From NCBI GenBank assembly GCA_034003245.1, contig JAVEYY010000021.1, positions 5,852 through 69,851 of the forward strand: DNA of 64,000 nucleotides, in the 5' to 3' direction. The notes beneath the pieces are model-generated. The model saw nothing but the letters and a program-made list of their open reading frames with translations, made no database searches and was not told the DNA's origin. Shown here one piece after another: positions 36,313 through 54,040 of the stretch. Positions within the stretch are counted from its first letter, which is position 1. Each line of letters begins with the position of its first letter. Made by a program: the position numbers and the translations under genes. This DNA comes from Tenuifilaceae bacterium (GTDB lineage: Bacteria; Bacteroidota; Bacteroidia; Bacteroidales; Tenuifilaceae).

Positions 36313-36334
36313 CCTCATTACCTTTTAAAGCCAA

Positions 36335-36366
36335 AAGGCTACTCCTGGCGAGTAGCCTTTTTTTGT
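36335..36366 (+). terminator. Rho-independent terminator after sdhB
   Basis: AAAAGGCTACTC-CTGGC-GAGTAGCCTTTT followed by a T-run. Confidence 0.85.
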
Positions 36367-36436
36367 TTTTTAATCATAATTACTATTGATAGATAAAATT
36401 ATATAACTTTGTGCATAGAACTAATTTTAATCGTTT

Positions 36437-37759: not shown

Positions 37760-40156
37760 TTAGTGAAAAAATAGCCTTTTATACCAAGGTCTCTGTACTG
37801 TGTGTTCTTGCTTTTGGCGTTCTTTTTTATCGAAAAATATTTTATAGGAAAACGAGGGGATAATTGGAAAGTAACTTTTTTGATAAAGCCCTAACTCTTG
37901 GCTTTCGCTATCTGACATGGCAGACTTTTCGAGGTAAAAATAAAAGTAAGGGTTTTGGCGGTTATAGGCGTTGTATACAGAGAAAGTCCACTGAGAATTG
38001 TAGCCATTACGCGTATGAGTATTATACTGCAAACCAAGATCGAGACGATGATAATTACGCATACGCGCACTGTTACGTTCTCCGTAAAGTAAAACTTCAT
38101 ATCCATCAAGGTCATTGGGAGTGGAACTTCTTATATAAGGGGCTTTGTGCCTACCTATAACTGGGGTAAAAGGTAGTCCTGTTTGGAAAACCCAGCTGGC
38201 TGTAAGCTGCATTTTTTTAGTAAGTTTACGAATTAAGCTAACTGTTGCCGAGTGAGGCCTATCGTATTCAAAAAGATACTCAATACCATTATTTATCTCG
38301 CTAAACTGGCGAGTTGTGTGCGACCATGTATAGCCAATAAAGCCCAACCAGTTGCCGTAGTTTTTCCTAACCAGCACCTCTAACCCTATGGCTTTACCCT
38401 TTCCTCCGGTTACCACTTTGTTACGCCAAAACCCATCGCCCATAAGGTTGGTGTATCCCTCGCGATAGTTAGCAAGGTTGCTAAGGTTTTTGCTGTAAAT
38501 GCTTGTTTCAGCATCAAACATTCCGTTAGCAAAGTTCCCTTTCCACCCCACTGCTAGCTGAGAGGTACTAGCATTTGGAATATCGGCACCCGCTGGCACC
38601 CACACCTCGTTGCTATTCACTTCGCCCGATGTAAAGAGTAGATGCGAGTGCTGGGAAGCCTGCATATAACTACAATTGAACTTGTTGTTTGAGTTAAGTT
38701 TAACGTCGAGGCTAAGCCGGGGCTCAAGCCCAATATGCGAGAAGCCATTGTTAGCAAAAACCACACTTCGCACCCCCGCCTGTAGTTCAAAAACACTTAG
38801 AAACTTAATATGATTCTTAAGATATAAAGCCGATTCGGTTGAGGTTATTGTAGGCTCACCAAAAATTTCGGTTTGCGTTGAGCTAACCATAGTGTTTGGG
38901 CTATGTAAAAGCAGTGTTGCTTGCATACCAGCATGTAAAGTCCAATTGGGTAGCAACTCGAATCGCCAACCCGATTTGAACGACATATCCTGTACCGATG
39001 AGCGAAACCTCATACTCTGAGAAATAGTATCGTTAAGAGATAAAATTGAGAATTGATTATTCTGACCTAGCCTATAACGAACGTAGGAAAGACTTTGGTT
39101 TGAGTATAGCTTTGGGGAATGCACCCTGTTCCAATGAGCCGACACCATCCAGTTACCCCAAATATTCCTCATATTAGAAAACTGCTGATTCTGGGAACTG
39201 GTGTAAGTGTTCTTAACACTCAAATAATCGTCGCCATGATAAACGTTTAAACTAAAAGAGTTCATGCCATTTGGCCGCCAAGTAAACTTACCATTTATAT
39301 CATGAAAGCCATAGTAAAATTTATATTCACCATTATCAACAAGGCTAGTTGCCAAAAGCATAAGCGGATCGGTAAGGGTTTTTCGGCCCGTAACAATAAA
39401 TGTTGAATTGGCAATTGGAGTAGGCCCCTCAATACTGGCCGATATATCGGTAAGCCCTAGGCTAAGGGTGCCCTTGGTATAGGCTGGATTTCCTTCACGC
39501 TGCGATATATCCATTATGGCAGAGAGTTTGCCACCGTACTTAGCCGGAAAACCACCTTTGTACACATCTATACTATTAATCATATCGGGATTAAAAACCG
39601 ACATGAACCCGCCAAAGTGGTTTACGTATATTAGGGCAACGTTATCGAGCAGGTAAAGGTTCTCGCCGGGGTTTCCGCCCCTAACCAACACCAAACTCGA
39701 CCCCTCGCTTTGTGTCTGTATTCCGGGCAGCAGCTGAATGGCTTTCATCACATCAGGTTTTGCCCCAAGAGATGGAACCGACTGAAACTCGAGCTGGCTA
39801 AGAGTAGCCACATTAAAAGGTGGACGCCGAGTATGGTTTATCACCACTTCATCAATCTGATTACCGGGGCATAACAAAACCTCAACAAGCGTATCGTTCT
39901 TAAAATCAACCTTAAGCTTTTTAGTCGTATAACCAACGTATGACATCGTAATAGCGCCCCTACCCATTGGGATGATGCTAAAGTAGCCTTTGGCATTGGC
40001 AATGGCGGCTCGGCTAGTACCATCCTCAACTACATGTGCGCCAACTAGCACCTCTCGCGATATACTATCGCGGATAAATCCGGATATTCGCACCTGAGAA
40101 TACAAACTACCGCTAGATATCAGTAGCGCAACAAGCAGAAGTTTAATGTAACGCAT
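37760..40156 (-). CDS. TonB-dependent receptor 1 (CarboxypepD_reg-like N-domain + plug + barrel)
   Basis: 798 aa. Signal peptide, ISGFIRDSISREVLVGAHVV...GYFSI regulatory domain, plug block PSLGAKPDVMKAIQLLPGIQ...VRGGNPGENLYLLDN, and a long beta-rich barrel whose terminal strand is PSFSYKIFF. That strand is followed by a 23-aa basic tail. Confidence 0.85.
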   Translation of the reverse strand: MRYIKLLLVALLISSGSLYSQVRISGFIRDSISREVLVGAHVVEDGTSRAAIANAKGYFSIIPMGRGAITMSYVGYTTKKLKVDFKNDTLVEVLLCPGNQIDEVVINHTRRPPFNVATLSQLEFQSVPSLGAKPDVMKAIQLLPGIQTQSEGSSLVLVRGGNPGENLYLLDNVALIYVNHFGGFMSVFNPDMINSIDVYKGGFPAKYGGKLSAIMDISQREGNPAYTKGTLSLGLTDISASIEGPTPIANSTFIVTGRKTLTDPLMLLATSLVDNGEYKFYYGFHDINGKFTWRPNGMNSFSLNVYHGDDYLSVKNTYTSSQNQQFSNMRNIWGNWMVSAHWNRVHSPKLYSNQSLSYVRYRLGQNNQFSILSLNDTISQSMRFRSSVQDMSFKSGWRFELLPNWTLHAGMQATLLLHSPNTMVSSTQTEIFGEPTITSTESALYLKNHIKFLSVFELQAGVRSVVFANNGFSHIGLEPRLSLDVKLNSNNKFNCSYMQASQHSHLLFTSGEVNSNEVWVPAGADIPNASTSQLAVGWKGNFANGMFDAETSIYSKNLSNLANYREGYTNLMGDGFWRNKVVTGGKGKAIGLEVLVRKNYGNWLGFIGYTWSHTTRQFSEINNGIEYLFEYDRPHSATVSLIRKLTKKMQLTASWVFQTGLPFTPVIGRHKAPYIRSSTPNDLDGYEVLLYGERNSARMRNYHRLDLGLQYNTHTRNGYNSQWTFSVYNAYNRQNPYFYFYLEKSAMSDSESQELGLYQKSYFPIIPSFSYKIFFDKKERQKQEHTVQRPWYKRLFFH

Positions 40157-40202
40157 TCTTTATACAATAAGCAATTAATTACAATACGGTTTTGGCTGCA
40201 TT

Positions 40203-41063
40203 CTATTGTGGAGAAATGGTATCGGAAACCGCCTTGGAGTATCCGACAAAAATGCCGCAACCTCCCTTTACGTTTGAATAAAGCGGGATTGCAGGTAAAG
40301 CACCCGTAAAAAAATCGGGGTATAGCGCATCGGTATAAAGCGAGAGCTGCTTTTTATAGCTATAGTAATGCTTGCATACCGAGCGTAGCTCAACAACAAT
40401 TGGAGTATCGTCCTCAATTTGGAGGTTAATATGCATAGTGTAGGTATCTGTAGGCACAAACTCTGTACTAAAAAGGATCAAATCAAGCCCCTCGCTAAGG
40501 AGCACAGGGTCATTAATATTAGCGGGATTAATGCGCCTTTCACTATCGCTCCATACAACAACCTCAAGATATCTTGTATCGTGCTTACTAAAAGTAACCT
40601 CAACTGCATTTTGTAAATCGCCCCAGTAGTTAAACCAAGCGTTCTTAATAAACTTAACGTTCTCTATGGGTGCAGCCAAGGGAACAACGGTTGTCGCCGT
40701 AACCAGATCGTAGCCTGGGACGTTTACCTCGCATTTATACTCGTTTCCCTCCTGCGCTTCGGTAGACGAGTTGTATAAACCTTTGCTTGTATGCTCAAGG
40801 GTTTCGAGCAGATGACCATTTTCATACAAATGCACTTGGGCATTGGTTACATCGGTTAGCTGAGCCGAGTCGATACTACCCGACAACGAAATATGCACCC
40901 ACACCGGTTTTCCTGCTTCAACTATTCCACTGATAGTTGGTTTGGGGGGATGACTGGGAAATTCCCAATCTACCTCTTTCTCGCATGAGGGCATGGTAAC
41001 AACCAATACAAAATAGACAAATATACAGGCAAGTAAGTAATATAAAGGCTTAGTGCTATTCAT
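40203..41063 (-). CDS. DUF4249-like lipoprotein (partner of TonB-dependent receptor 1)
   Basis: 286 aa. Lipobox TMPSC and the C-terminal SNVKGGCGIFVGYS motif characteristic of DUF4249. Sits directly upstream of a CarboxypepD_reg-type receptor. Confidence 0.65.
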   Translation of the reverse strand: MNSTKPLYYLLACIFVYFVLVVTMPSCEKEVDWEFPSHPPKPTISGIVEAGKPVWVHISLSGSIDSAQLTDVTNAQVHLYENGHLLETLEHTSKGLYNSSTEAQEGNEYKCEVNVPGYDLVTATTVVPLAAPIENVKFIKNAWFNYWGDLQNAVEVTFSKHDTRYLEVVVWSDSERRINPANINDPVLLSEGLDLILFSTEFVPTDTYTMHINLQIEDDTPIVVELRSVCKHYYSYKKQLSLYTDALYPDFFTGALPAIPLYSNVKGGCGIFVGYSKAVSDTISPQ

Positions 41064-41072
41064 ATATGAATA

Positions 41073-41657
41073 TTAAAACTTAACCGTTAAACCGTACCTT
41101 AGGCAAGACTCTATGTTATACTCTTCAGGCCGATTATTAAATCCATACTCAACAAAAGCGCCCCAGTATGGGGTAATGTAATAACTAAGCCCTCCGTAAA
41201 GTCCGTAATCGGCCCCATGCCCTTTGTAAACGCTACCCTCAGGTGCTGCCAGGCTAAGACCTCCAAATTTTGCTGATAAATACACATCAAATCGAGGTTC
41301 GGCACTATTGGCAATAAGAGGTAAAAGGTGAAAATTGGCAGTAATACCATAAGTGAATGCATTGGAGTATATAAAAGTGCCCGGGGATATTTGATTATTT
41401 GAAGATTCAGTCTCCTCGGTATTTAAAAAATTAACAAATCTACTATACCCCAGGTAGCCTCCAAACTCAAAAAAATTTGTACCGCCATAAGTCGCTTCTA
41501 ACCTAAAATTGCCCAGCGAAAGATTATAGTCTGATTGCAAATACTTTGGCGTGATACTGTGGCCAAATTTTAAGTTATTGCGCTTGCAAAGGTAATTCTC
41601 CTGTGCTTGAGTTAGGTTTACAGTCAAGATTATCAAAACAAATGTGAAAAACTTCAT
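41073..41657 (-). CDS. Small outer-membrane beta-barrel protein (paralog family of three)
   Basis: 194 aa. Signal peptide ...LTQAQ, alternating beta pattern, NFHLLPL motif and a C-terminal ...YGLTVKF beta-signal. Confidence 0.6.
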   Translation of the reverse strand: MKFFTFVLIILTVNLTQAQENYLCKRNNLKFGHSITPKYLQSDYNLSLGNFRLEATYGGTNFFEFGGYLGYSRFVNFLNTEETESSNNQISPGTFIYSNAFTYGITANFHLLPLIANSAEPRFDVYLSAKFGGLSLAAPEGSVYKGHGADYGLYGGLSYYITPYWGAFVEYGFNNRPEEYNIESCLRYGLTVKF

Positions 41658-42114
41658 ATTATATTTTACTTAGTTAATTTGTTACGTTAAAGATAAGAAG
41701 TAAAGAGGCATTTCTAATTCAATTAAATAATAAGCACTTAAACAATGCCTCTTTAAACTATTAATTATTCAAGTAGATGGGGATTAAAAGTTCTCTCCGC
41801 AACTACCTGTCCTCTATGGTTTTTACCCCACATATCATAAGCCAGAATTGTCTGATTGGGTTGGCCTCACCTCCCTGAGTGATTTAGCAGTTGTTCTATG
41901 GGGGTGGGGCATTTTTGGGGCCAGTTTTTATAAGGGTTCATTTGACCTCCCTCCTTTATTTGCTTTAGGGCTAAGGTTATCCCTGTATCAAGTAGTTTAC
42001 CCTATAATTCCGGGGCGGTATCAACCCCGTCATTTGGTCAATTGCCTTGCAACAACCTATGATTAAGCGTTATAATATTTTTTCCTTGCAAGTAAATATA
42101 TATTAGGTGTATTT

Positions 42115-42190
42115 TTACACGTGTAAATGTAGACAAACATAATATTTACAAGTGACATTACCCCCCCCCTATAGATTATGTTATATAACA
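42115..42190 (-). promoter_or_regulatory. Candidate promoter of cassette 1: palindrome, G9 tract, 19 nt, TAnnTTTG, TTACACGTGTAA palindrome
   Basis: Read on the minus strand: TGTTATATAACA (42179-42190), G9 (42161-42169), a 19-nt spacer, TATGTTTG (42134-42141), then TTACACGTGTAA (42115-42126). Confidence 0.55.
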
Positions 42191-42197
42191 CATCTCA

Positions 42198-42225
42198 CTT
42201 TCAGAGGGAGAGTCTCCCCTCAAAG
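42198..42225 (-). terminator. Imperfect GC hairpin just downstream of EamA copy A
   Basis: CTTTGAGGGGAGACTCTCCCTCTGAAAG on the minus strand. No U-run follows. Confidence 0.35.
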
Positions 42226-42270
42226 CACATAAACGATCTAGAAAGGATTAGTAATTAGATGGCTTAGGGT

Positions 42271-43107
42271 CTATAGCCCTCGCCTACGAATATTCCAGTT
42301 TAGGATTGCCAGCGATAGTCCCACCAAAACCATGCCCAGTATGGCAATTAGCGTGGGGTGCTCGTTGGATAAAATTAGCCAACTAAGCACGGCACCTAGC
42401 ACAGGAATTATAAATTTCCACATGTTAAGGGTTGATAACTTTACACCCGGACGCTTTAATAATGTGTACCATATTGATATAGCTGCAGCCGAAAGAAAAC
42501 TTAGCCAGCCCAACGAGAGCCAGTACTCGAGCGGGAATGGCCCTGAATGAAAATTTTCGGTTATCAACCCTAATACAAAAAGCATGGCTCCGCCAAATAT
42601 CATGGAGAACGAGCTTAGCACCAGCGGTGGAATATGACGCTTATCCTTAGCAACCAACATATTCCCAAATCCCGACAGCAGGTTATTGGCAATTAGGATA
42701 AGAATCCCCACGCTCACCATGGTTCCAGCTGCACCCATCTGCTTGCGGCCAAGGCTAATTATTACAATGCCCAGCAAGCCCACCAGAATACTTGCCACCT
42801 TGCGGCTATTTAGCGTATCGCCAGGCATAAAGAAATGGGCAACAATGGCAATGAAAAGTGGCCCGGAACCAATAATCATAGCGCCCAGCGCTCCGGGAAC
42901 CATATCAACGCCTTTGTAAAACAGGGCGTACTGCAGAAAGGTTTGCACAAAACCCACAAGCAATATCTTGGGAATGTTTAGTTTGGCAACGATAAGTTTT
43001 GCCCGTAAGTCGGGAATAAAGGGAATAATAAGTAGTCCCGACAGGAAAAAGCGAATCCCTGCAAACTGAAAGGGTGTCGTATATTTTAGGCCAATCTTAA
43101 TGCCCAC
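42271..43107 (-). CDS. EamA/DMT-family permease, copy A (5' end disrupted relative to copy B)
   Basis: 278 aa from a GTG start, near-identical to residues 26-303 of copy B. A 5-nt deletion and a TTG-to-TTA change remove the copy-B start, and no ATG/GTG/TTG lies upstream in frame. Confidence 0.6.
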   Translation of the reverse strand: MGIKIGLKYTTPFQFAGIRFFLSGLLIIPFIPDLRAKLIVAKLNIPKILLVGFVQTFLQYALFYKGVDMVPGALGAMIIGSGPLFIAIVAHFFMPGDTLNSRKVASILVGLLGIVIISLGRKQMGAAGTMVSVGILILIANNLLSGFGNMLVAKDKRHIPPLVLSSFSMIFGGAMLFVLGLITENFHSGPFPLEYWLSLGWLSFLSAAAISIWYTLLKRPGVKLSTLNMWKFIIPVLGAVLSWLILSNEHPTLIAILGMVLVGLSLAILNWNIRRRGL

Positions 43108-43236
43108 AAAAGCTGTTGACCACAGTATGCAAGCAACAATGGCGAGGAAAATGGTTGAGAAATGTTTTAATTTTAAAGATGTGGTACCATTAAGTTTGAA
43201 ACCACGTTTTTTGGGGTGGTTATTATAATATTCACA

Positions 43237-43267
43237 GGGTTACTATCCGCTAAGCAGATAGCAACCC
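43237..43267 (-). terminator. Hairpin downstream of TonB-dependent receptor 2
   Basis: GGGTTGCTATC...GATAGTAACCC on the minus strand (one G-U pair). Weak U-tail. Confidence 0.4.
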
Positions 43268-43308
43268 CATAAGTAAAGAGAAGAATTATTCAATATTAAA
43301 CTTCAGCA

Positions 43309-45789
43309 TTACTCATCAAAATACATCCAGTTTCTCCCTCTCCCTTGCTCCTTCCTTTGTTCTTTTCGCTCCTGCTTTCTTTTTGATTTTATCTGGCGGA
43401 AGGCCTTAATATCATCAAAAAAGACCTTGTACGAAATGGTGGGGAGAATAGGGAAAAAACTCAACTGGTAAAGAGAGTAAGGTTCTGCGTCATTAAAACC
43501 TAATTGTGGAATACGAGTATTGTACTGTTCAGTATCGTGCGTAAACATATAGCTGTAAGGATTTTGCCTGTTGTAGGCATTGTACACGGCAAATGTCCAC
43601 TGCGCCTTGTTCCCATACTTGGTTTGGGTTGTGTAATTTAGCGCTAAATCGAGGCGATGGTAAAATCGCATACGCTCGCTATTCCTCTCTCCATAAATAA
43701 ATGCCTCGTAGTAGTAGGTATCATCGCCCCGACTTGTTAGGCTTGGTACATAAGCCCTACCATAAACGGGCGTAAAGGGTAAACCCGACTGGAGCACCCA
43801 CGAAGCACTGAGTGACATCTTATCGCTAATTTTGTGATTAAGGGTAAGCGAAAGGTTATGCGGCCGATCGTAATCGAACAAATACTGCTTTCCATCATTT
43901 ATATTGGGATATTTACGAGTTGACTGCGACCAGCTATACCCCATGAAACCAGTCCAATTGCCCCGTGTTTTACGCACAAACAGCTCCACGCCATAGGCCT
44001 CGCCCTCGCCCCCTGCCTCTACCTTGTTGCGCCAATTGCCATCGCCCATTAGCGATGTGTACCCCTCGCGATAGGTGGCAATATTACGCAATGTTTTGTG
44101 ATATGCGCTCACCTCAACATCCCACATCCCCTTGCCAAAAAAGCCACGCCAGCCTGCTGCAACCTGCTGGGTTGATGCAGGGCTAATTCCATTCCCTGCC
44201 GGCACCCACACCTCGTTGCTCATTATTTCGCCCTGGGTAAATAGCAGGTGCGAGAATTGATTGGCCTTCATGTAGCTAGCGTTAAGGGTATGGTTAGCCC
44301 CTACATGGATGTTGAGGTTTGCCCTGGGCTCAATTTTAAATTTGCTGTACTGCTCCGATACGTATCCCGCAGCACGTGCCCCTATGCGCAATGAAAGTAT
44401 TTTGGGGAACTCTAGCTTGGCCTCGGAATATGCCGATGGTTCAAGCGTATTTATGGTAGGCTGACTAGTTGCTGCCGGATTGTTCGATATGTATATATTA
44501 TTGGGATTGTACCTAAGGTATGCAGTGTGAAGGCCAAAATCGACACCCAAATTTTCGTGAAATTCAGCTGTTAAATCCCACTTATAGGAGATGTCCTGTA
44601 CTATGGATTTAAAGTTTCGCTTAAACTCAAACTTTGAATCGGGGTCGGTGTTAGTATAATTCTGGTTATTTTTTAACCTATAGCGCACAAACGAAAGGCT
44701 TTGCGTAGAGTATAAACTAGGGCTGTGCACTCGGCTCCAACGGGCGGATAGCAACCAGTTTCCCCACACATTTGAGAGCCGTGCCCTTTCGCTACCCGAA
44801 TTACTGCGGTTATAGTACCACCAGTTTATGTAGTCATCGCCCTGATAAAGATTTACGCTTAGGGTGTTTTTTGTATCGGGTCGCCAAGTAAATTTCCCAT
44901 TAACATCATGAAAACCGTACGACAGTATATAATCGCCTCCACCCGAAATCTTACTGGCTAATGCAAGTAATGGGTCAACCAGCGTTTTTCGACCAGCAAC
45001 AATAAAGGTTGAATTTTTTATTGGGGTGGGTCCTTCAAGCAGAAAAGAGGCATCGGTTATGCCAATGCTGTATGCTCCCTTTAGTTTGTTAACATTACCC
45101 TGACGTTGGGCAATATCCATAATTGACGACAGCTTGCCTCCGTAACAGGATGGAAATCCGCCCTTATACACCTTAATGTTATTAATAATATCGGAATTAA
45201 AAACCGAGGTAAATCCGCCCAAATGGTTTACATAAATTAGCGCAATATTATCGAACAGGTAAAGGTTCTCGCCCGGATTGCCACCACGCACCAGAATGGT
45301 GCTTGAGCCCTCGTTCTGCGACTGTATGCCGGGGAGCAGCTGAATGGCCTTCATCACATCGGGCTTTGCCCCCAGCGAGGGCAGCTGCTGCAGCTCCAGG
45401 TTGCTAAGCGATGCCACGCTATGTGTATGTCGCTTGGTATGGGTTACCACCACCTCGTCGATACTATTCTGTGGGTGCAAGAGTATAGTTACGAGCGAAT
45501 CGGTTGGCGTATTAAGGTTTATTGCCACTGGCTTATAGCCAACAAATGATACTGTTAGCTTGCTGTTAGCCTGCACATTGATGCTGAAATAGCCAGTGTT
45601 ATCGGTGGGGACTACCCGCATACGGGTGCTATCAACTATATGTGCTCCCACCAGCACCTCGCGCGTGAGGCTATCGCGGACAAATCCGGCAATACGCTGC
45701 TGAGCAACCACAGAAAAGTTTACGCTACAAAGTAATGCTGATGCTATGAGGTATTTAAAAATCTTCACAATGCTTACCATTTGGGTCAA
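43309..45789 (-). CDS. TonB-dependent receptor 2 (close paralog of receptor 1)
   Basis: 826 aa. Shares long identical runs with receptor 1 (PSLGAKPDVMKAIQLLPGIQ, VRGGNPGENLYL). The terminal strand PTISYKVFF is followed by a 35-aa Lys/Arg/Glu-rich tail. Confidence 0.85.
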   Translation of the reverse strand: MTQMVSIVKIFKYLIASALLCSVNFSVVAQQRIAGFVRDSLTREVLVGAHIVDSTRMRVVPTDNTGYFSINVQANSKLTVSFVGYKPVAINLNTPTDSLVTILLHPQNSIDEVVVTHTKRHTHSVASLSNLELQQLPSLGAKPDVMKAIQLLPGIQSQNEGSSTILVRGGNPGENLYLFDNIALIYVNHLGGFTSVFNSDIINNIKVYKGGFPSCYGGKLSSIMDIAQRQGNVNKLKGAYSIGITDASFLLEGPTPIKNSTFIVAGRKTLVDPLLALASKISGGGDYILSYGFHDVNGKFTWRPDTKNTLSVNLYQGDDYINWWYYNRSNSGSERARLSNVWGNWLLSARWSRVHSPSLYSTQSLSFVRYRLKNNQNYTNTDPDSKFEFKRNFKSIVQDISYKWDLTAEFHENLGVDFGLHTAYLRYNPNNIYISNNPAATSQPTINTLEPSAYSEAKLEFPKILSLRIGARAAGYVSEQYSKFKIEPRANLNIHVGANHTLNASYMKANQFSHLLFTQGEIMSNEVWVPAGNGISPASTQQVAAGWRGFFGKGMWDVEVSAYHKTLRNIATYREGYTSLMGDGNWRNKVEAGGEGEAYGVELFVRKTRGNWTGFMGYSWSQSTRKYPNINDGKQYLFDYDRPHNLSLTLNHKISDKMSLSASWVLQSGLPFTPVYGRAYVPSLTSRGDDTYYYEAFIYGERNSERMRFYHRLDLALNYTTQTKYGNKAQWTFAVYNAYNRQNPYSYMFTHDTEQYNTRIPQLGFNDAEPYSLYQLSFFPILPTISYKVFFDDIKAFRQIKSKRKQERKEQRKEQGRGRNWMYFDE

Positions 45790-46693
45790 TAATTTCCGAT
45801 TTTACCGATGAGTACCCTGTCAGTATCCCGTAGCCATTCTGCACGTTGCTATAGAGATTATAACTACCCGTTACTCCAACCGATAGTAGTGGCTCGCTGG
45901 TTGCCACCTCGTACAGGTACTGCTGCTTTATAAACTTGTAGTAGCTATGGCAAATGGTACGCAGCTCAACCTGTACTGGGAAAAGATTGGTTACCCAACC
46001 AGCATTATTATGGTTTGAGGCGCTGCCCGTTGAGTAATTAATGGTCATGGTGTAGGTGCTACCCTCAATTAGCTCGTTGCTAAACACGGCCATGGGCAAG
46101 CCCTCGTTAAGCAGAACAGGGTCAACAATGTAGAATGGATCAGCACTACCTTTATAATTTTCGCCATTAAAAAGCCTAATAACCACCTCGTAGTAAACGG
46201 TTGTATCGGGTAAATTATCGAAAGTTACCTTAACGGCAGGATAGGTTAACCCCTCCTCATCGACCCCAGCCATATTAATATGTTCAAATTCTACTATGTT
46301 CTGATGCTTGGGAATAACCGTAGAGCATGTGGCTGTTGGGTAGCCGGGTATAGTAACCTCGCAGCGGTACTCGCTATCCTCCTGCGCAACGAGCTCCGAT
46401 TGGTAAAGCCCATCGCCAATGTATTCAAGCGTTTCGGCATACTCGTTGTTAACGTATAGCAGCACTTCAGCGTTATCTACAGCGGGGGTGGGCTCGGCAG
46501 TAAATTTTACTGCAGTTGAAACCATTATGGAAACATGGCTTCCACTCTTAATAACGCCATTAACAACGGGCTTTTGCTCAAATTCGGGTGGGTTCCAGTC
46601 GAGCTTTTTGTGGCAGCTATTGAAAAGAAACACAAAAACCAAGGAAAACCCTACAACACCTCGTATTCCCTTGTTATCAAAACTTATAAGCAT
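45755..46693 (-). CDS. DUF4249-like lipoprotein (partner of receptor 2)
   Basis: 312 aa. Lipobox LFNSC and C-terminal SNVQNGYGILTGYS. Overlaps the receptor start by ~35 nt. Confidence 0.65.
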   Translation of the reverse strand: MLISFDNKGIRGVVGFSLVFVFLFNSCHKKLDWNPPEFEQKPVVNGVIKSGSHVSIMVSTAVKFTAEPTPAVDNAEVLLYVNNEYAETLEYIGDGLYQSELVAQEDSEYRCEVTIPGYPTATCSTVIPKHQNIVEFEHINMAGVDEEGLTYPAVKVTFDNLPDTTVYYEVVIRLFNGENYKGSADPFYIVDPVLLNEGLPMAVFSNELIEGSTYTMTINYSTGSASNHNNAGWVTNLFPVQVELRTICHSYYKFIKQQYLYEVATSEPLLSVGVTGSYNLYSNVQNGYGILTGYSSVKSEIIDPNGKHCEDF

Positions 46694-46703
46694 ACGTTAT
46701 ATT

Positions 46704-47246
46704 TTAAAACTTAAATGATAAACCGTACCTGAGATTTGTATAGCTACCATATCCAAACTCACCATAAACACCAAAATGACGAGTAAAGTAATATGCCGCT
46801 CCTGCGTAAACCCCGTAATCGGAGAAGTACTTATGAGGCAGGGGTGAAAAGTTTTTTCTTTCGGGATTAATACCCCCAAGTTTCCCCGAAACATAAAGGT
46901 CAAACCGTACTTTTTTCTCCTTAACAATTAGTGGCAGAATATGAAAATTAGCATTCAGCCCATAGTTAGTAGCTGCGTAACCTGATATTGTCATACCTGT
47001 GGTTGTCCCAATATTTTCTCTTTTTATATCTTGATAGAAACCAAACCCTGCGTAAACACCAACCTCAATAAAAGGAACTATTTTATAGTTAACCTCACCC
47101 CTAAAGTTTGGGAGGTTATTGTGTGTGTCCTCTGGGTTACTAAGGGAAAAACCCAACTTAGCGTTAATCCTTTTGGGCACGGTATTAACCTGAGCAAAGG
47201 TGTTAATTGATATTAGCAACGAGGCTAAAAGCAAAAGTCTTTTCAT
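46704..47246 (-). CDS. Small outer-membrane beta-barrel protein
   Basis: 180 aa. Signal peptide ...NTFAQ, NFHILPL motif, C-terminal YGLSFKF. Confidence 0.6.
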   Translation of the reverse strand: MKRLLLLASLLISINTFAQVNTVPKRINAKLGFSLSNPEDTHNNLPNFRGEVNYKIVPFIEVGVYAGFGFYQDIKRENIGTTTGMTISGYAATNYGLNANFHILPLIVKEKKVRFDLYVSGKLGGINPERKNFSPLPHKYFSDYGVYAGAAYYFTRHFGVYGEFGYGSYTNLRYGLSFKF

Positions 47247-47263
47247 TTGTTTAATTTTATTTT

Positions 47264-47845
47264 TTAAAACTTTACAACAAACCCATACCTTAAGTTGGGT
47301 TCACTATCGGAAAAATTCACCTTTTTACTTACTCCATACTCAACGTAAACGCCCCAATTCTTGGCAATAAAATAGTTAACACCACCAAGCAAGCCATAGT
47401 CGAACACAGTCCCTTTGTAAAGGCTATTGGCTGGAGCTATCATAGAAATCATTCCCAACTTAGCGCCAACATATAAGTCGATGCGCACTCTTCCTTCTCT
47501 TATTACAAATGGAAGGATATGAAAATTGGTGTTTAACCCATAAAACAAAGCATTGGATTTGTAGGGCGAGCTAAATGTGGTGGGTGTGCTTGGACTTAAA
47601 GGGCCTTCAATATTTTTAAAATTACTATACCCTAAATACAGACCTGGTTCAATAAAATTAAAAAGTACGTAGTTCGCTTCAAACCTTACATTTCCAAATG
47701 CAATATTGTCGCTAAAATCCCAAAACTTTGGGGTGTTTGAGTGACCTAGTTTAAGCGACAACCTCTCGTTAAGAGAGGTGTTTTGGGAAAAACCTATCGC
47801 TGTAAACGTTAGGAAAAACGTTACCAATAAATTAATCTTACTCAT
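47264..47845 (-). CDS. Small outer-membrane beta-barrel protein
   Basis: 193 aa. Signal peptide ...IGFSQ, NFHILPF motif, C-terminal YGFVVKF. Confidence 0.6.
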   Translation of the reverse strand: MSKINLLVTFFLTFTAIGFSQNTSLNERLSLKLGHSNTPKFWDFSDNIAFGNVRFEANYVLFNFIEPGLYLGYSNFKNIEGPLSPSTPTTFSSPYKSNALFYGLNTNFHILPFVIREGRVRIDLYVGAKLGMISMIAPANSLYKGTVFDYGLLGGVNYFIAKNWGVYVEYGVSKKVNFSDSEPNLRYGFVVKF

Positions 47846-48070
47846 AATCTATTTTTAGTTTTACTATTGATATTGAAAAAACCAATGCCGTACAATTAAC
47901 TTCATATGTCATTTGCCTTTAGAAAATAAGCCATTCTACGTATTTGGCTACCACGCATAAGGACACATCAGCCTGCTGGCAAAGACAGGTGAGTAGTTAT
48001 ATAATGAATTCAATAAATGCTTTTGATTGTTTTAGATATTATTTTGTGATTAGCAATGTATTCTTGTAAA

Positions 48071-48127
48071 CAAAACTAGCACTTTATACCAATTTTACCC
48101 CCCCCGTATTTATGTGTTATAAAACAC
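48071..48127 (-). promoter_or_regulatory. Candidate promoter of cassette 2: inverted repeat, G8 tract, 19 nt, TAnnTTTG
   Basis: Read on the minus strand: GTGTTTTATAACAC (48114-48127), G8 (48098-48105), a 19-nt spacer, TAGTTTTG (48071-48078). Confidence 0.55.
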
Positions 48128-48215
48128 ACCAAATACCACAAAAAGAATGAACACGCAACAGAAAAACACCTCACTATGGCAAAGGATTACAGCTGATGGT
48201 TTGCAGCGGGTTGAT

Positions 48216-48256
48216 GAGAGAAAAATCCTGACAGGTTTTAGAAACCTGTCAGGATT
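48216..48256 (-). terminator. Strong rho-independent terminator (minus strand)
   Basis: Perfect 14-15 bp stem AATCCTGACAGGTTT / AAACCTGTCAGGATT with a 3-nt loop, followed on the minus strand by UUUUUCUCUC. Confidence 0.85.
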
Positions 48257-48557
48257 GGCATGCTGCAGCCTCCGGTTAGTAACACTTGCTAATGATAGAC
48301 CAGTTCTGGTGCAACCTACCTTTGACAGGTAAACCTGAGCCGAACGTGGAGTAGCAAGAACTTTACCGAGCAGATGAATATCAGGGCTAAAGCCCATTTT
48401 ACTACAGGTTTTTCCCCTGCCCTAAAGGACAGGGTTATTGGCAGCCACTGCCTATTTACAATTTCAGATTCCTAGTTGGGTTAAGGGCTGTACCTCTGCA
48501 GAACGAAACAGTCCGTGTGCGACTTTAAGTTGCGCCCGGACTTATGCTCAAACCAAC
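48257..48557 (-). ncRNA. Candidate structured RNA or structured 3' UTR downstream of receptor 3 (family unknown)
   Basis: GC-rich for an intergenic region. It has several local hairpins (48510-48542, 48440-48452, 48414-48434, 48384-48395) and ends at the terminator above. The 48414-48434 stem is perfect only as minus-strand RNA (G-U versus C-A). Confidence 0.35.
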
Positions 48558-50912
48558 CTAAAACTTAAAAGTATAGCTAATTGAGGGCATAATTGGGAAA
48601 AGGCTAAAACGATATAACTTGGGTGTATCGTTGTGATATCGTGTAAAATAAAAATAGGGGTTCTTCCTATTGTAAATATTAATGATGCTAAAATCCCAGA
48701 CGCCAACCCAACCCTTATGGTATTTGGTATGTGATATTCCTATATCGGCTCGATGGTATGAACGATCGCGATAGTTGTTAACGCCATCGTAAATAAAAAC
48801 AAAGTTACCCTCGTTATCTTTATACTGCTCAGACGGCAAGCTGTAGGGCAAACCCGTACCAAAAACCCAGGTAAAGGTAAGGCTTAATCTCTCGTTAAGC
48901 TGCTGGTTGTATAGCAACGACAAATTTACCAACCTATCGTACCTAAATGGGAATTCATTGCCGCTGTTAATATCTTTAAACTGTCTACCGGCTTTGGAAA
49001 CCCCAATGCTTACCCAACCCGTTGATGAGCCTTTTAGCTTTTGCAACATCAGCTCAACACCCATTGCACTCCCCTTACCATTGGTGGCTAGTACTTTGGC
49101 AAGGTCGTTCCCCAAAACGTACGACACCCCCTCCTTTAGGTCGGCTAAATTGGAGAGTTTTTTATGGTAAGCCTCTAGGGTTACTTCGTAAAACCCATCG
49201 TAAGCCACATGGTTAAGTCCTAACGACCAAATTTTGCTTGCAGAGGGTGGTGCAAATGCTCCAGCAGGTATCCGATAATCTGTTGGCATACCTGCGCTAT
49301 TGTTTGAGACCAAATGGAAGTGCTGATGCATAACGGAGTACGACCCCTTTAAAGAGGTGTTGCTAGTAATTTTTCTGGACACAAGTATCCGAGGCTCAAT
49401 AAAATTGAATACCTCATCGGTATAGATAAGCTTTTGCGCACGCACCCCAATATTTAAACCAAATCCGTAGTAGTTGCTAAGTATAAACTCACCGTACGCA
49501 CTTGGGCTTAAGGCGCTACCAGAGGTGTAGCCTGTAGCAGCTGGCGCAACCTCACTAGCACCATCGGCCACCTGCTTTATGGTAGTTTGCCCAGGGTTAT
49601 ACCGATGCGAAACAAGGGCGCAACCCAAAAGTATGGTAACCTTATTGCTGACTCTGTAATTGTAATTTATGTTCAAAAAATCATCCCTAACGTTCGATTT
49701 AAAAGATGATTCTACTTCATAGTTCCCAAGGGTTTTAACATCGATATTAGACAGCTCTGAGTACGTGTACGCGGTTGTGCCAACCGTAATGTTCAAGTAG
49801 TTTCGGCTGTTAACAATACGATTAAACCTTAACGCTGCTCCCAAATTACCCCACTGGTTGGTAAGCGATGAGCTTACCGATTCATCGTCCTTGGTTTTCA
49901 CACCCAGCTTATCGTTGCCATTATAAAAGCTAAAGTATAGGCGGCTCTTTTCGGAAATGTGAGTATTTAGTTTTACGTTCATATCGTACATGCTATAGTT
50001 CTCATCAACCTTAAAAATCCAACGTAAAAAGGGAATGGTATTTTTCCGAAGCGATACCAAATAGCCTGCCCTGCCTTTAACAATTGGGCCATGAGCTAAA
50101 ACTTTAGATGTAAGCATTCCCAAGGTAATGCTTTGCCTGTGCTCAGCCATATCGCCATCGAGAGTATGCACATCAACAACTGCCGATAGCCGCCCTCCGT
50201 AGCGAGCGGGGAAAGCACCAACGTAAAATGTTGCATCCTTTACAATATCGGAATTAAAGGTAGAGGTAAAACCACCAAGGTGCGTTACGTGGTACAGGGG
50301 CAACTCATCTAAAAGGAATAGGTTTTGGTCATGGCTGCCTCCCCTAACGTACAAATTACTGTTGCCATCGCCTGCAAGTTGCGTTGCAGGTGCAAGCTGA
50401 TAGTATAGCAGCATATCCTTTTCACCGGCAAAAGATGGCAACCCTGCTAGCTGCCTTGGATTAAGCCTAAATACAGACATCTCTGGCTTTAGCGCGCTCT
50501 TTTTGGAGAAAACCTTAACCTCTCCTATTGAATGGGCCGATGAGGTTAGCTGAATATTGGCAACCTGCTCTTTATGCGGTAAGGTAACTTGCAAAGGAGA
50601 ATACCCTATGTGCGAGAAATAAACATCAACAGAATCCATTCCTTGGGAAAGCCATAACGTGAAATGGCCATAGGCATTAGTTGTTGTGCCTTGCCCCGTT
50701 TTGATGTTTACCACTGAGGCTCCTACAAGCACCTCTTTACTATGAGCATCAATTACGGTACCCGATACAGAAACATTTCTGCTCTGGCTTAAGCCCGTAA
50801 TTGGTTTTACAACTGCCGATAAAAGAACAATCACAACAATTAACCCTGATATTATTGAAGCATTGATGCTAAGTAGTTTCATAAGATTACTAATCGATAG
50901 TTCTAGAGGCAA
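48558..50912 (-). CDS. TonB-dependent receptor 3 (divergent paralog)
   Basis: 784 aa. CarboxypepD_reg-like VSGTVIDAHSKEVLVGASVV, plug block YVRGGSHDQNLFLLDE, and it ends exactly at the beta-signal PSISYTFKF. The start may be the Met at 50882. Confidence 0.85.
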   Translation of the reverse strand: MPLELSISNLMKLLSINASIISGLIVVIVLLSAVVKPITGLSQSRNVSVSGTVIDAHSKEVLVGASVVNIKTGQGTTTNAYGHFTLWLSQGMDSVDVYFSHIGYSPLQVTLPHKEQVANIQLTSSAHSIGEVKVFSKKSALKPEMSVFRLNPRQLAGLPSFAGEKDMLLYYQLAPATQLAGDGNSNLYVRGGSHDQNLFLLDELPLYHVTHLGGFTSTFNSDIVKDATFYVGAFPARYGGRLSAVVDVHTLDGDMAEHRQSITLGMLTSKVLAHGPIVKGRAGYLVSLRKNTIPFLRWIFKVDENYSMYDMNVKLNTHISEKSRLYFSFYNGNDKLGVKTKDDESVSSSLTNQWGNLGAALRFNRIVNSRNYLNITVGTTAYTYSELSNIDVKTLGNYEVESSFKSNVRDDFLNINYNYRVSNKVTILLGCALVSHRYNPGQTTIKQVADGASEVAPAATGYTSGSALSPSAYGEFILSNYYGFGLNIGVRAQKLIYTDEVFNFIEPRILVSRKITSNTSLKGSYSVMHQHFHLVSNNSAGMPTDYRIPAGAFAPPSASKIWSLGLNHVAYDGFYEVTLEAYHKKLSNLADLKEGVSYVLGNDLAKVLATNGKGSAMGVELMLQKLKGSSTGWVSIGVSKAGRQFKDINSGNEFPFRYDRLVNLSLLYNQQLNERLSLTFTWVFGTGLPYSLPSEQYKDNEGNFVFIYDGVNNYRDRSYHRADIGISHTKYHKGWVGVWDFSIINIYNRKNPYFYFTRYHNDTPKLYRFSLFPIMPSISYTFKF

Positions 50913-51858
50913 TATGCATTACAGTATCTACCTTTGCATAACCAGCAAAAATGCCATACCCGCCAACAATATTCGACATAACAGCAACCGGCGGAGCAAT
51001 GCCATACAAAAAATCGCCCTCAACGGCATACATCTGCGTGTATTTTGATGTTTTATAATGAAAATATGCCTTTGAAACGGCACGTAGCTCAACCCTCAGG
51101 TAATGCTCGGGGAACTGGTATCCAGTAAGGGGATTCCAGGAACTTGATGTTTCGTACATAAAATCGACTAGGGCTTCCTGCTGATTTTCGTCAAACCTAA
51201 AAAGTAAGGTTTCCGGATATCCGCTCCCTATAAGCATTAGGTCGGGGTAATAGGTTTCGCGGGTAATTAGCGGGTGGTTCGACTTTAAGGGCGTGGTTGA
51301 GCTGTAAAACTCCAAATCATCGTCATCATCCCAAATCTCGGCAAGATAAAGAGCCACTTCAAAGTATTGACTTTGTGTTACTTCATTTATCGATTTTATG
51401 GAAATACTTACCTGGTTATAAAAATCGTTACCAATAGGTTGCACCGAGGCATCTACTATTAAGGCTGGGTAAGGAATGGTATCGGTAGCAAATGCCTCAA
51501 CATCTCCAGTAGAATTGTACAGTTCTATCCTGTATATACCACCAGACTCATACTCTAATTCGTTTGTTGTAAAAGTGATGTAATCAAAATTATAATTTGG
51601 GGTAAGCGCATACTCATACCCGCTAGTCACATTGGTTATACTAGCGTTAAAATCATCAATTTTGCTAATTGAGGTGGAGTAGGCAGGCTGAGTATGCGTT
51701 ACGTAAACATATGGATTTTTATGCGATACAGTATATGAGCTAATTACAATACTGGGTTTATGCAATACAGATTCAACTTCAACAAGCTCTTCGCATCCCA
51801 CAAAAATTAGCAGCATACACAATAGTAGAATTCTCATTTTAATCGGACTACAACACAC
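50890..51858 (-). CDS. DUF4249-like lipoprotein (partner of receptor 3)
   Basis: 322 aa. Lipobox IFVGC (likely start at the Met at 51837) and C-terminal SNIVGGYGIFAGYA motif. Confidence 0.6.
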   Translation of the reverse strand: MCCSPIKMRILLLCMLLIFVGCEELVEVESVLHKPSIVISSYTVSHKNPYVYVTHTQPAYSTSISKIDDFNASITNVTSGYEYALTPNYNFDYITFTTNELEYESGGIYRIELYNSTGDVEAFATDTIPYPALIVDASVQPIGNDFYNQVSISIKSINEVTQSQYFEVALYLAEIWDDDDDLEFYSSTTPLKSNHPLITRETYYPDLMLIGSGYPETLLFRFDENQQEALVDFMYETSSSWNPLTGYQFPEHYLRVELRAVSKAYFHYKTSKYTQMYAVEGDFLYGIAPPVAVMSNIVGGYGIFAGYAKVDTVMHIASRTID

Positions 51859-51924
51859 CTAGGATTATACTTTTACTAACGATGAGGAAAGGTACTTTAG
51901 TGTACCCTTCCTCAACACTAAGGG

Positions 51925-52686
51925 TTACCAAACAATTGGATTATTGCTCTCCCTAATTTCAAAATTTGAATAGGTATTGGTGTATAACATAACTCCAAGT
52001 CTGTAATATCCAGCTGCACATAGAGGATGCTCCATCTCCCATTCAAAGTTAATGTGACCTTGTTGCCAATTCCACTTTTCATCACAGTGCCATCTGCACA
52101 ACCAACATTTTGTATAACCCCATTTAAAGATAAAACCTGATGGATCGTTGTCAACTGGAAAATATTTCAAGCCAAGGTATTTGCGTTTTATTTTTGCTTT
52201 GTATCCAATGAAATACTGGTCTGGTGGCCATGGGTCTAGACTTTTTGCTGTAATTTCAGCCTTAAATGAAACCACAAATTCTTCTGATTCGTATTCCTCA
52301 GGCATACTTAAAATTTCAATGAAAACTTGAGGCAAATTATCAGTTATATAAACATTTTCATTAAATTGATTATTGGCTGTTGGGATAGAAACAACAGATG
52401 AAAACTCACCTTTATCCTTTAATGGTGTTAAACTAAGCGAAAAAGCATTTGTAAACCCATATAGGGAGACAGAGTCGCTAGATGACAATAGAAAACTAAC
52501 CTTGTTCTTTTTATCATTTAATGAAACATCAACTGTATCGGTAAAGATAAAACATTCATCCTCGATATTGTTAGCAGAGGTAACATAACTGGGTTTGATA
52601 CCACTCTTTTGGCATGAAGATGAAATCAGCAGCAAAATAAGAATACATAATAAACTTACACTTGCACAACTTTTAATTTTAATCAT
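51925..52686 (-). CDS. Hypothetical lipoprotein with a Cys/Trp-rich C-terminus
   Basis: The track ORF extends to 52773, but that extension lies in the duplicated non-coding leader. MIKIKSCASVSLLCILILLLISSSC at 52686 is a proper lipoprotein signal. Confidence 0.55.
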   Translation of the reverse strand: MIKIKSCASVSLLCILILLLISSSCQKSGIKPSYVTSANNIEDECFIFTDTVDVSLNDKKNKVSFLLSSSDSVSLYGFTNAFSLSLTPLKDKGEFSSVVSIPTANNQFNENVYITDNLPQVFIEILSMPEEYESEEFVVSFKAEITAKSLDPWPPDQYFIGYKAKIKRKYLGLKYFPVDNDPSGFIFKWGYTKCWLCRWHCDEKWNWQQGHINFEWEMEHPLCAAGYYRLGVMLYTNTYSNFEIRESNNPIVW

Positions 52687-52975
52687 CGTAATAAGTTTTA
52701 ATTCGACTTTAATTAGTTGAGTTGGCCTCACCTCCCAGAGTGATTTAGCAGTTGTTCTATGGGGGTGGGGCATTTTTTTAGCCAGTTTTTATAAGGGTTC
52801 ATTTGACCTCCCTCCTTAATTTGTTACAGGACTAAGGTTATCCCTGTATCAAGTAGTTTACCCTATAATTTCGGGGCGGTATCAACTCCGTCATTTGGTC
52901 AATTGCCTTGCAACAACCTATGATTATGCATTATAATATTTTTTCCTTATATGTAAATATATATTAGGTGTATTT

Positions 52976-53048
52976 TTACACGTGTAAATGTAGACAAACA
53001 TAATATTTACAAGTGACATTACCCCCCCAGAGATTATGTTATATAACA
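52976..53048 (-). promoter_or_regulatory. Candidate promoter of cassette 3: palindrome, G7 tract, 19 nt, TAnnTTTG, TTACACGTGTAA palindrome
   Basis: Read on the minus strand: TGTTATATAACA (53037-53048), G7 (53022-53028), a 19-nt spacer, TATGTTTG (52995-53002), then TTACACGTGTAA (52976-52987). Confidence 0.55.
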
Positions 53049-53055
53049 CATCTCG

Positions 53056-53083
53056 CTTTCAGAGGGAGAGTCTCCCCTCAAAG
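53056..53083 (-). terminator. Imperfect GC hairpin just downstream of EamA copy B
   Basis: Same element as 42198-42225. Confidence 0.35.
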
Positions 53084-53128
53084 CACATAAACGATCTAGA
53101 AAGGATTGGTAATTAGATGGCTTAGGGT

Positions 53129-54040
53129 CTATAACCCCCGCTTACGAATATTCCAATTTAGGATTACTAGCGATAGTCCCACCAAAACCATGCCCAGTAT
53201 GGCAATTAGCGTGGGGTGCTCGTTGGGTAAAATTAGCCAGCTTAGCACGGCACCAAGCACGGGAATTATAAATTTCCACATGTTAAGGGTTGATAGTTTT
53301 ACACCTGGACGCTTTAATAATGTGTACCAAATTGATATGGCTGCAGCCGACAGGAAGCTAAGCCAGCCCAACGATAACCAGTATTCTAGAGGGAATGGCC
53401 CTGAATGAAAGTTTTCGGTTATCACACCTAAAACAAAAAGCATGGCTCCGCCAAAAATCATGGAGAACGAGCTGAGCACCAGCGGCGGAATATGGCGATT
53501 GTCGTTAGCAACCAGCATATTCCCAAAACCAGCCAATAAATTATTGGCAATCAGGATTAGAATACCTATGCTTACCATGGTTCCAACAGCGCCCATCTGC
53601 TTTCGTCCAAGGCTAATTATTGTAATACCCAGCAATCCCACAAGAATACTTGCAATCTTGCGGCGGTTAAGCATGTCGCCAGGCATAAAGAAATGGGCAA
53701 CAATGGCTATGAAAAGTGGCCCAGAACCAATAATCATAGCGCCCAGCGCACCGGGAACCATATCTACTCCTCTGTAAAAAAGAGCATACTGCAGAAAGGT
53801 TTGCACAAAACCCACAAGCAATATCTTAGAAATGTTTTGCTTGGCAACCATAAGTTTTGCACGTAAATCGGGAATAAAGGGAATAATAAGTAGTCCCGAC
53901 AGGAAAAAACGAATACCCGCAAACTGAAAGGGTGAGGTGTATTTTAGGCCAATCTTAATGCCCACAAATGCGGTTGACCAAAGTATGCAAGCAACAATGG
54001 CGAGGAAAATGGTTGAGCTAAGAAATGTTTTAATTTTCAA
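53129..54040 (-). CDS. EamA/DMT-family permease, copy B (full length)
   Basis: 303 aa (TTG start), about 10 TM helices, with two EamA-like halves. Confidence 0.85.
   Translation of the reverse strand: MKIKTFLSSTIFLAIVACILWSTAFVGIKIGLKYTSPFQFAGIRFFLSGLLIIPFIPDLRAKLMVAKQNISKILLVGFVQTFLQYALFYRGVDMVPGALGAMIIGSGPLFIAIVAHFFMPGDMLNRRKIASILVGLLGITIISLGRKQMGAVGTMVSIGILILIANNLLAGFGNMLVANDNRHIPPLVLSSFSMIFGGAMLFVLGVITENFHSGPFPLEYWLSLGWLSFLSAAAISIWYTLLKRPGVKLSTLNMWKFIIPVLGAVLSWLILPNEHPTLIAILGMVLVGLSLVILNWNIRKRGL

Follow-up and report, generated by a model that had tools for sequence, protein, structure and literature searches.

TonB-dependent transporters (TBDTs) of the outer membrane are usually regarded as single barrels, at times lidded by a lipoprotein. 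Here we describe three gene sets, termed cassettes 1 to 3, on the minus strand of a 64,000-nucleotide stretch of a Tenuifilaceae bacterium genome (contig JAVEYY010000021.1; the whole stretch analysed is called the window). Every cassette encodes a DUF4249 lipoprotein and a TBDT of the CarbopepD_reg/Plug type, and cassettes 1 and 2 additionally encode one or two small outer-membrane barrels. The TBDT/DUF4249 pair and predicted multi-barrel proteins are already known; the new element is a small barrel tied to DUF4249-type TBDTs. Literature linking such a barrel, split or fused, to these transporters was not found in the searchable literature.

DUF4249 was proposed as the lid of a non-SusC TBDT from the cofitness of BT2172/BT2173 in B. 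thetaiotaomicron and from AlphaFold-Multimer contacts (Price et al. 2023, 10.1101/2023.03.17.533168; PMC11003636). Like the cassettes, BT2172/BT2173 comprises adjacent same-strand genes for a DUF4249 protein and a CarbopepD_reg/Plug TBDT, is distinct from SusC, and is confined to Bacteroidota. It is reported as a two-gene pair, and both the small barrel and the first-gene lipoprotein are absent from the accessible parts of that report (10.1101/2023.03.17.533168; PMC11003636). The subfamily described here extends beyond that pair through a small barrel, either separate or fused, an extra lipoprotein, and a characteristic C-terminal tail on the transporter.

SusC/SusD systems (RagA/RagB) share with the cassettes an N-terminal extension (NTE), a DEVVV-type TonB box, an adjacent lipoprotein partner, and accessory surface lipoproteins encoded in the operon. 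Unlike SusC/SusD, the cassettes carry the lid gene upstream of the TBDT, a TBDT ~200 residues shorter and a second barrel, and they lack SusD (a tetratricopeptide repeat (TPR) fold), glycoside hydrolases and regulators. The distinction from SusC/SusD drawn in the earlier note is borne out by TIGR04056 scores of 42–53 bits against a cutoff of 368, matching the first 85–185 residues only, and a Pfam scan found no SusD-like protein in the cassettes.

Multi-barrel outer-membrane proteins (OMPs) have been predicted computationally, including a "22-8" family with a median linker of 22 residues (Solan et al., PNAS 2021, PMC8346858). Relatives of the window transporters of ~980 aa resemble this family in joining a TBDT-size barrel and then a ~8-strand barrel in one chain, with a linker of ~20–35 residues. 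The 22-8 family differs in being mostly from Rhizobiales (Proteobacteria) and in not being tied to DUF4249 lids, split versions or a docking tail (PMC8346858). The window proteins themselves are encoded by split genes, and the one-chain architecture occurs in 23 relatives only.

A third point of comparison is provided by the TbpA/TbpB-type systems of Neisseria and other Proteobacteria, in which the 14-strand barrel Slam, equipped with a periplasmic TPR domain, translocates lipoproteins. As in the cassettes, a TBDT is encoded in these systems with a surface lipoprotein and an extra barrel, at strain-variable loci. Unlike Slam, the barrel described here is ~8-strand, lacks any further domain and occurs fused to the TBDT in some relatives, and the two are not known to be related in sequence.

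A small barrel beside or within DUF4249-type transporters

Three minus-strand outer-membrane cassettes had been read from the DNA in the earlier note, with one small barrel in cassette 1, two in cassette 2, and a DUF4249 lipoprotein and TBDT in each; this make-up and the positions of the open reading frames (ORFs) hold. Genes within a cassette are separated by 9–66 nt or overlap. The span first assigned ran to 52773, but the first lipoprotein of cassette 3 really starts at the internal ATG at 52689, and its ORF upstream of that point is conserved leader DNA. That span had also left out a duplicated EamA gene and three promoter modules that bound the cassettes.

The three barrels, BB1, BB2a and BB2b, each possess a signal peptide and a C-terminal ...KF. 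They are paralogs, as first proposed, with mutual identities of 36–44% (BLASTP, E 1e-25 to 4e-45), and the motifs NFH[IL]LP and RYG..KF are present as described. The most conserved barrel motif, NFH(I/L)LP...RFD, would lie in a predicted periplasmic turn according to strands counted by hand. BB2a exceeds the OMP_b-brl cutoff (PF13505, 28.7 bits), BB2b falls under it at 20.8 bits, and BB1 has no Pfam match; a PDB sequence search identified no relative of the small barrels. BB2a is 95% identical to b213 of the related locus L001. The family is small: clustering at 50% identity places it in 541 clusters out of 1.84 billion representatives.

The comparison covered ~100 related loci in all. A transporter-alignment scan of species-representative genomes yielded 78 loci, and their ORFs were sorted by profiles built for this analysis, with TBDTs under 880 aa classed as short (n=69) and those of ~980 aa as long. 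The pairing of DUF4249 with the TBDT recurs in other species, DUF4249 lying directly upstream of 62/69 short and 24/25 long TBDTs of the subfamily. Adjacent barrel genes accompany 51 of the 56 assessable short TBDTs, located upstream of DUF4249 in 29 loci and directly downstream of the TBDT in 22; the other five lack an adjacent barrel. In 23 long TBDTs the barrel forms a C-terminal domain spanning approximately residues 805–983 (hidden Markov model (HMM) E near 1e-45), and long TBDTs have no separate barrel gene because the barrel is fused to their own C-terminus.

Fused C-termini match BB1 and BB2a by BLASTP (E 6e-29 and 2e-24, respectively); with the C-terminal domain of the L049 transporter, BB1 aligns from its mature N-terminus through the final ...KF (E 6e-29). 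The fused domain is undetected by a Pfam search, and standard annotation therefore misses it. A converse search with a barrel alignment returned 16 metagenome loci, 13 with the barrel beside DUF4249 or a TBDT and three ended by the contig, and none of the 16 was a counterexample to this adjacency. The last protein search for named cultured organisms with fused proteins gave almost only free barrels from metagenome-assembled genomes (MAGs). The earlier idea of the barrel as a recurring third component thus survives a check elsewhere, in the adjacency and in the 23 fusions: the small barrel is a true partner of this TBDT subfamily.

These counts also bear on a reading in which the small barrels are generic OmpA/OmpX-like proteins lying near TBDT genes by chance, with roles in, for example, envelope stability or adhesion. 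BB2a does match the general OMP_b-brl family, homologues are named just "outer membrane beta-barrel protein" by NCBI, and five assessable short TBDTs and the entire cassette-3 clade have no barrel. Set against this are the 51/56 adjacency, 23 independent in-frame fusions, the correlation with the transporter tail described below, and the lack of any counterexample in the barrel-first search. Chance neighbourhood is already largely refuted by co-location and fusions, and an assembly artefact repeated in 23 species is implausible; we regard this reading as highly improbable.

The transporter C-terminus covaries with the barrel. Split-type TBDTs carry a basic tail of 22–35 aa past the terminal strand (~29% Lys/Arg) with an aromatic motif at its end, for example WLYHE, RLFFH or WLYFD; this end motif is present in 45/58 split tails versus 2/23 fusion linkers. 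A tail of 8–35 aa occurs in 52 TBDTs with a barrel gene and in one without, and tailless TBDTs comprise eight with a barrel gene and nine without. In the window, TBDR1 and TBDR2 (the transporters of cassettes 1 and 2) have both tail and barrel, and TBDR3 has neither: the basic 23-aa tail of TBDR1, DKKERQKQEHTVQRPWYKRLFFH, follows the terminal strand, at which TBDR3 stops (...SISYTFKF). The tail would be periplasmic, as is known of barrel termini, and may dock the separate barrel. BB2b was considered as a downstream barrel of cassette 3 and rejected, because a strong terminator lies between them together with a complete promoter module and because the TBDR3 clade is barrel-less and tail-less.

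A neighbour-joining tree of the TBDTs places TBDR3 in a deep group without tail or barrel. In the same tree, fused forms are found in five or more subclades, always next to a split form whose barrel lies downstream, which suggests repeated fusion and fission. The resemblance of receptors 1 and 2 and the divergence of receptor 3 were seen correctly at the outset: TBDR1 and TBDR2 are 52% identical by BLASTP and TBDR3 is 29–30% identical to either, and the long identical runs reach 20 aa between the first two and just 6–7 aa against TBDR3. In the closest cultured relative, Perlabentimonas gracilis (Bacteroidales, Tenuifilaceae; locus L014), the cassette-1 transporter is present as two ORFs of 665 and 138 aa (10001-12393), which may reflect a frameshift, decay to a pseudogene or an error in the sequencing.

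Table 1. Features of the window, by position
Feature	Position	Strand	Details
tRNA gene	14549-14622	-	With the next, the window's sole Rfam matches (gathering threshold)
tRNA gene	29242-29325	+
TPR/fumarate-reductase block	33436-37678	+	One flank of the three minus-strand gene sets
TBDR1, cassette 1 transporter	37760..40156	-	798 aa; NTE, Plug, putative barrel; CarbopepD_reg_2 and Plug by Pfam
DUF1, cassette 1	40203..41063	-	PF14054 92.5 bits; lipobox ...TMPSC; putative surface lid
BB1, small outer-membrane barrel	41073..41657	-	194 aa; signal peptide; C-terminal ...RYGLTVKF; BLASTP to BB2a, BB2b
First-gene lipoprotein remnant, X369 type, cassette 1	41768..41860	-	Last 31 codons only
Leader/promoter copy A, before cassette 1	41856..42270	-	Palindrome 42177-42192; G9 42161-42169; -7 box TATGTTTG 42134-42141
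EamA_a, inner EamA/DMT transporter copy	42271..43184	-	Open frame, native start codon missing; first start GTG, codon 26
TBDR2, cassette 2 transporter	43309..45789	-	Pfam domains; 35-aa basic C-terminal tail ending ...GRNWMYFDE
DUF2, cassette 2	45755..46693	-	PF14054 86.3 bits; lipobox ...LFNSC
BB2a, small barrel	46704..47246	-	180 aa; PF13505 44 bits
BB2b, small barrel	47264..47845	-	193 aa; BLASTP to BB1 44% identity, E 4e-45
Promoter module, cassette 2	47990..48130	-	Palindrome 48113-48128; G8 48098-48105; -7 box TAGTTTTG 48071-48078
Intrinsic-terminator-like hairpin	48224..48256	-	15-bp stem and T run; after TBDR3, divides cassettes 3 and 2
TBDR3, cassette 3 transporter	48558..50912	-	Pfam domains; no tail; probable start 50882
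DUF3, cassette 3	50890..51858	-	PF14054 64.0 bits; probable start 51837 (MRILLL...FVGC)
X3, cassette 3 first-gene lipoprotein	51925..52689	-	~254 aa; lipobox ISSSC
Leader/promoter copy B, before cassette 3	52717..53128	-	Palindrome 53035-53050; G7 53022-53028; -7 box 52995-53002
EamA_b, intact EamA/DMT transporter gene	53129..54040	-	Pfam EamA; with leader forms upstream repeat arm
dusB	54116-55132		Other flank of the three gene sets

Cassette lipoproteins and the proposed import complex

An HMM check confirmed the assignment of the three lipoproteins to DUF4249: all exceed the cutoff of 28.5 bits, with the matches extending from model positions 2–7 to 266–267 of 269. The lipobox cysteines of DUF1, DUF2 and DUF3 were taken by eye from the sequences. 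DUF1 and DUF2 share 37% identity (BLASTP), and the C-terminal motif SN[VI]..G.GI..GY is present in all three proteins, as had been noticed.

The Cys/Trp-rich lipoprotein X3 opens cassette 3. Its conserved, Cys- and Trp-rich C-terminal domain measures ~100 aa, and its homologues (42–98% identity) are always followed by DUF4249 and then a TBDT. The earlier note had read this lipoprotein as standing instead of a barrel; a first-gene lipoprotein is in fact a separate fourth component that co-occurs with barrels in relatives, where the order is leader, X36 lipoprotein (~360 aa), one to three barrels, DUF4249 and TBDT. The X36 family is the first gene of 24 short-TBDT loci. Its best member reaches 21.6 bits (E 1.8e-4) against DUF4848 (PF16140), missing the cutoff of 22.8, and the others score 13–18; the X36 profile matches PDB 4LB8 in its N-terminal half (E 8e-4). 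X3 has no DUF4848 match in a Pfam search. A divergent X36 membership of X3 was entertained and discarded, the iterated-HMM signal being contamination through the shared leader-encoded N-terminus; a clean profile with signal peptides removed revealed no relationship (hhalign probability 0.2%).

Within the window, the first-gene lipoprotein is intact in cassette 3 only. In cassette 1 a remnant persists, residues 339-369 of X369 from L005 matching 41860-41768 at 100% identity (tblastn), and its region has 93.6% nucleotide identity to L010. Alignment of the leaders places the cassette-1 deletion from ~30 nt upstream of the first-gene ATG to codon 338. Cassette 2 retains its promoter, without the leader core or a first-gene lipoprotein.

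The lipoproteins raise the question of whether the barrel serves them and not the transporter, as a Slam-like biogenesis factor that would export or anchor the DUF4249 and X lipoproteins. In barrel-bearing cassette types, the lipoproteins (one or two per type) show acidic residues next to the lipobox Cys on its C-terminal side, as read from the sequences, barrel number varies along with lipoprotein content, and fusion would put the barrel at the delivery site of the lid. Against such a role, delivery of DUF4249 and X3 takes place barrel-free in cassette 3 and its clade, and a barrel of ~170 residues, in the range of 8-strand OMPs, is too small for a known translocon. SusD-like lipoproteins are also exported in Bacteroidota without such barrels, as discussed by Price et al. 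2023. We consider this role quite improbable.

All three TBDTs match CarbopepD_reg_2 at 46–51 bits by Pfam. Plug (PF07715, cutoff 23.9 bits) is matched by TBDR1 (39.6) and TBDR2 (33.4), and TBDR3 falls slightly under the cutoff (23.1 bits, E 1e-4). TonB-box-like motifs lie beyond the NTE, namely DEVVI (residue 102, in TBDR1), DEVVV (111) and GEVKV (130), identified by motif match only. The ~570 aa after the plug and the terminal aromatic strand are compatible, in length and end motif, with a 22-strand TBDT barrel.

Together, we consider it likely that each cassette encodes a self-contained, TonB-powered, non-SusC outer-membrane import complex, composed of a TBDT, a DUF4249 lid, in cassettes 1 and 2 a partner barrel, and an optional capture lipoprotein. 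The TBDT would consist of a carboxypeptidase-regulatory-like N-terminal extension, TonB box, plug and large barrel, and the DUF4249 surface lipoprotein would be the lid that caps it. The ~8-strand barrels of cassettes 1 (one) and 2 (two) would sit beside the TBDT in the membrane, probably docked to its basic, aromatic-ended periplasmic C-terminal tail, which would be the counterpart of the linker in the natural TBDT-barrel fusions. A first-gene surface lipoprotein, of the X3 family in cassette 3 and of X36 in relatives of cassettes 1 and 2, would probably help in substrate capture.

Several observations weigh against this complex. The large TBDT barrel has no Pfam or PDB sequence match: PF00593 gave none at E <= 0.01 in the three TBDTs, and a PDB profile search produced matches confined to the NTE and plug of SusC homologues. 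The eight tailless TBDTs that still have an upstream barrel gene indicate that the tail is not strictly required, and the TBDT tree is a quick neighbour-joining one with no support values. Because cassettes 1 and 2 both lack the first-gene lipoprotein, either this component is dispensable or the two cassettes are impaired. Structure predictions of X3 and X369 are unusable (predicted local distance difference test scores (pLDDT) of 42.6 and 33.8), and neighbour genes in distant genomes are heterogeneous, giving no clue to the substrate.

Promoter modules and leader DNA

Each cassette is preceded by one copy of a 16-bp palindrome, TGTGTTNTATAACAYA, which occurs exactly three times in 64 kb against a chance expectation of 0. 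The palindrome is followed by 7 nt, a G tract (G9, G8 or G7), 19 nt and a -7 box, TA(T/G)(G/T)TTTG, of the Bacteroidota type TAnnTTTG. Orthologous promoters in relatives contain G7 to G11 amid otherwise conserved sequence; these promoter poly-G tracts are candidate sites of slipped-strand phase variation. With its own promoter module and with the terminator after TBDR3, each cassette is probably its own transcription unit, transcribed separately from its copy of the common module. Because that module is common to them, the three cassettes are probably co-regulated.

Copies A and B of the leader share a core of ~220 nt (41856-42065 and 52717-52925). Divergence of the core between copies is 3–7%, and that of synonymous sites in the adjacent EamA gene is 23–33%; conservation 4–6x better than at neighbouring synonymous sites implies that the leader is under constraint. 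The leader is found before different cassette types in several genomes, and neither leader nor palindrome was found outside the Perlabentimonas-like clade. Evidence of RNA structure in the leader is weak: its folding energy is unremarkable (z = -1.1), and just two pairs covary, both in the first hairpin. A riboswitch before the cassettes was considered and rejected: at gathering threshold Rfam gave the two tRNAs only, and the leader and the gap between cassettes 3 and 2 scored at chance level.

TBDR3 and the cassette-2 promoter are separated by a conserved non-coding block (48131-48523, minus strand) that contains several short GC hairpins and the terminator. It shares 84% identity with the sequence upstream of the P. 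gracilis cassette-2 orthologue, and in L101, L102 and L024 a 127-nt piece (~48377-48503) recurs downstream of genes of the TBDR2 type. The block may be a 3' untranslated region, a small RNA or a repeat element.

Origin of the array and its variability

A direct repeat of 1.33 kb and ~94% identity (~41856-43184 and 52717-54040) comprises EamA and ~415 nt of downstream non-coding leader. EamA_a and EamA_b differ at 0.33 of synonymous (pS) and 0.034 of nonsynonymous sites (pN), corresponding to a nonsynonymous-to-synonymous rate ratio (dN/dS) of ~0.08-0.10. A recent in-situ EamA duplication was therefore rejected, since each copy is as distant from the other as it is from orthologues elsewhere and both are under purifying selection; the pS of 0.33 points to another lineage as the source of the second copy.

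The cassettes likewise did not arise by the local triplication originally suggested: each has a close orthologue (88–97% identical) in another Tenuifilaceae-like genome, and the paralogous TBDTs are 29–52% identical. TBDR1 is 96.6% identical to its L010 orthologue and TBDR2 95.7% to that of P. gracilis; TBDR3 shares 87.6% identity with the second L010 cassette and 60.7% with a stromatolite MAG. What fills the slot from EamA to the TPR genes differs among relatives: L005 has just cassette 1, L101 just cassette 2, and L010 has cassette 1, a 190-aa TBDR2 remnant and cassette 3. Compared with L010, the window shows a mosaic of synonymous divergence (dS), with values of 0.75 for Dus, 0.39 for EamA, 0.17 for BB1, 0.03 for DUF1 and 0.05 for TBDR1.

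Close orthologues elsewhere, the dS mosaic and the EamA pS all argue for assembly by recombination. Judged from these comparisons, the cassettes are old paralogous lineages joined by homologous recombination between lineages at EamA/leader homology, which built the array in a hot spot of the chromosome flanked by EamA and the TPR/fumarate-reductase genes. Two scars of recombination were observed in relatives: in L010 (15252-15824), two cassettes are separated by the C-terminal 190 aa of a TBDR2 orthologue, and in L009 (11296-12770) an X-barrel-DUF4249 set without a transporter is directly followed by a second set, barrel-DUF4249-TBDT.

Relative to L010, dN/dS is 0.10-0.32 in cassette genes versus 0.04-0.11 in flanking genes; the cassette genes are faster-evolving than their neighbours yet under purifying selection. 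No gene-wide positive selection was found in this range, which argues against diversifying selection at the sequence level.

These rates bear on an account of the array as a phase- or antigen-variable surface system, in which poly-G slippage would select the expressed cassette, exchange would diversify epitopes or phage receptors, and nutrient specificity would be secondary. G tracts of differing length hold the same position in each of the three modules and vary among the relatives' orthologous promoters, cassette turnover and recent exchange are evident, barrel copies number one to three, and the predicted external loops and the C-terminal parts of the lipoproteins are the most variable. Gene-wide dN/dS is nevertheless purifying, and most of the distant members occur as lone cassettes in unrelated surroundings, with no such leader. 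To our knowledge, slipped-strand regulation is seldom reported in Bacteroidota, and we consider this account unlikely. A bolder form of the import-complex reading holds that the whole Bacteroidota subfamily consists of obligate two-barrel machines, with the 8-strand barrel fused or captured by a conserved periplasmic tail, and that in this lineage several of them stand behind identical promoters and are switched on and off independently by slippage at G7, G8 and G9; this proposal is speculative and, in our view, rather unlikely.

If the import complex is as proposed, a conserved second barrel would be a new subunit class for the outer-membrane import machines of Bacteroidota, and would give a functional context to the 22-8 multi-barrel proteins predicted by computation. 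Because split and fused pairs both exist and one relative, P. gracilis, is in culture, the two-barrel idea can be tested directly. Exchange of whole cassettes at a hot spot illustrates how related strains reshuffle their surface-transport repertoires.

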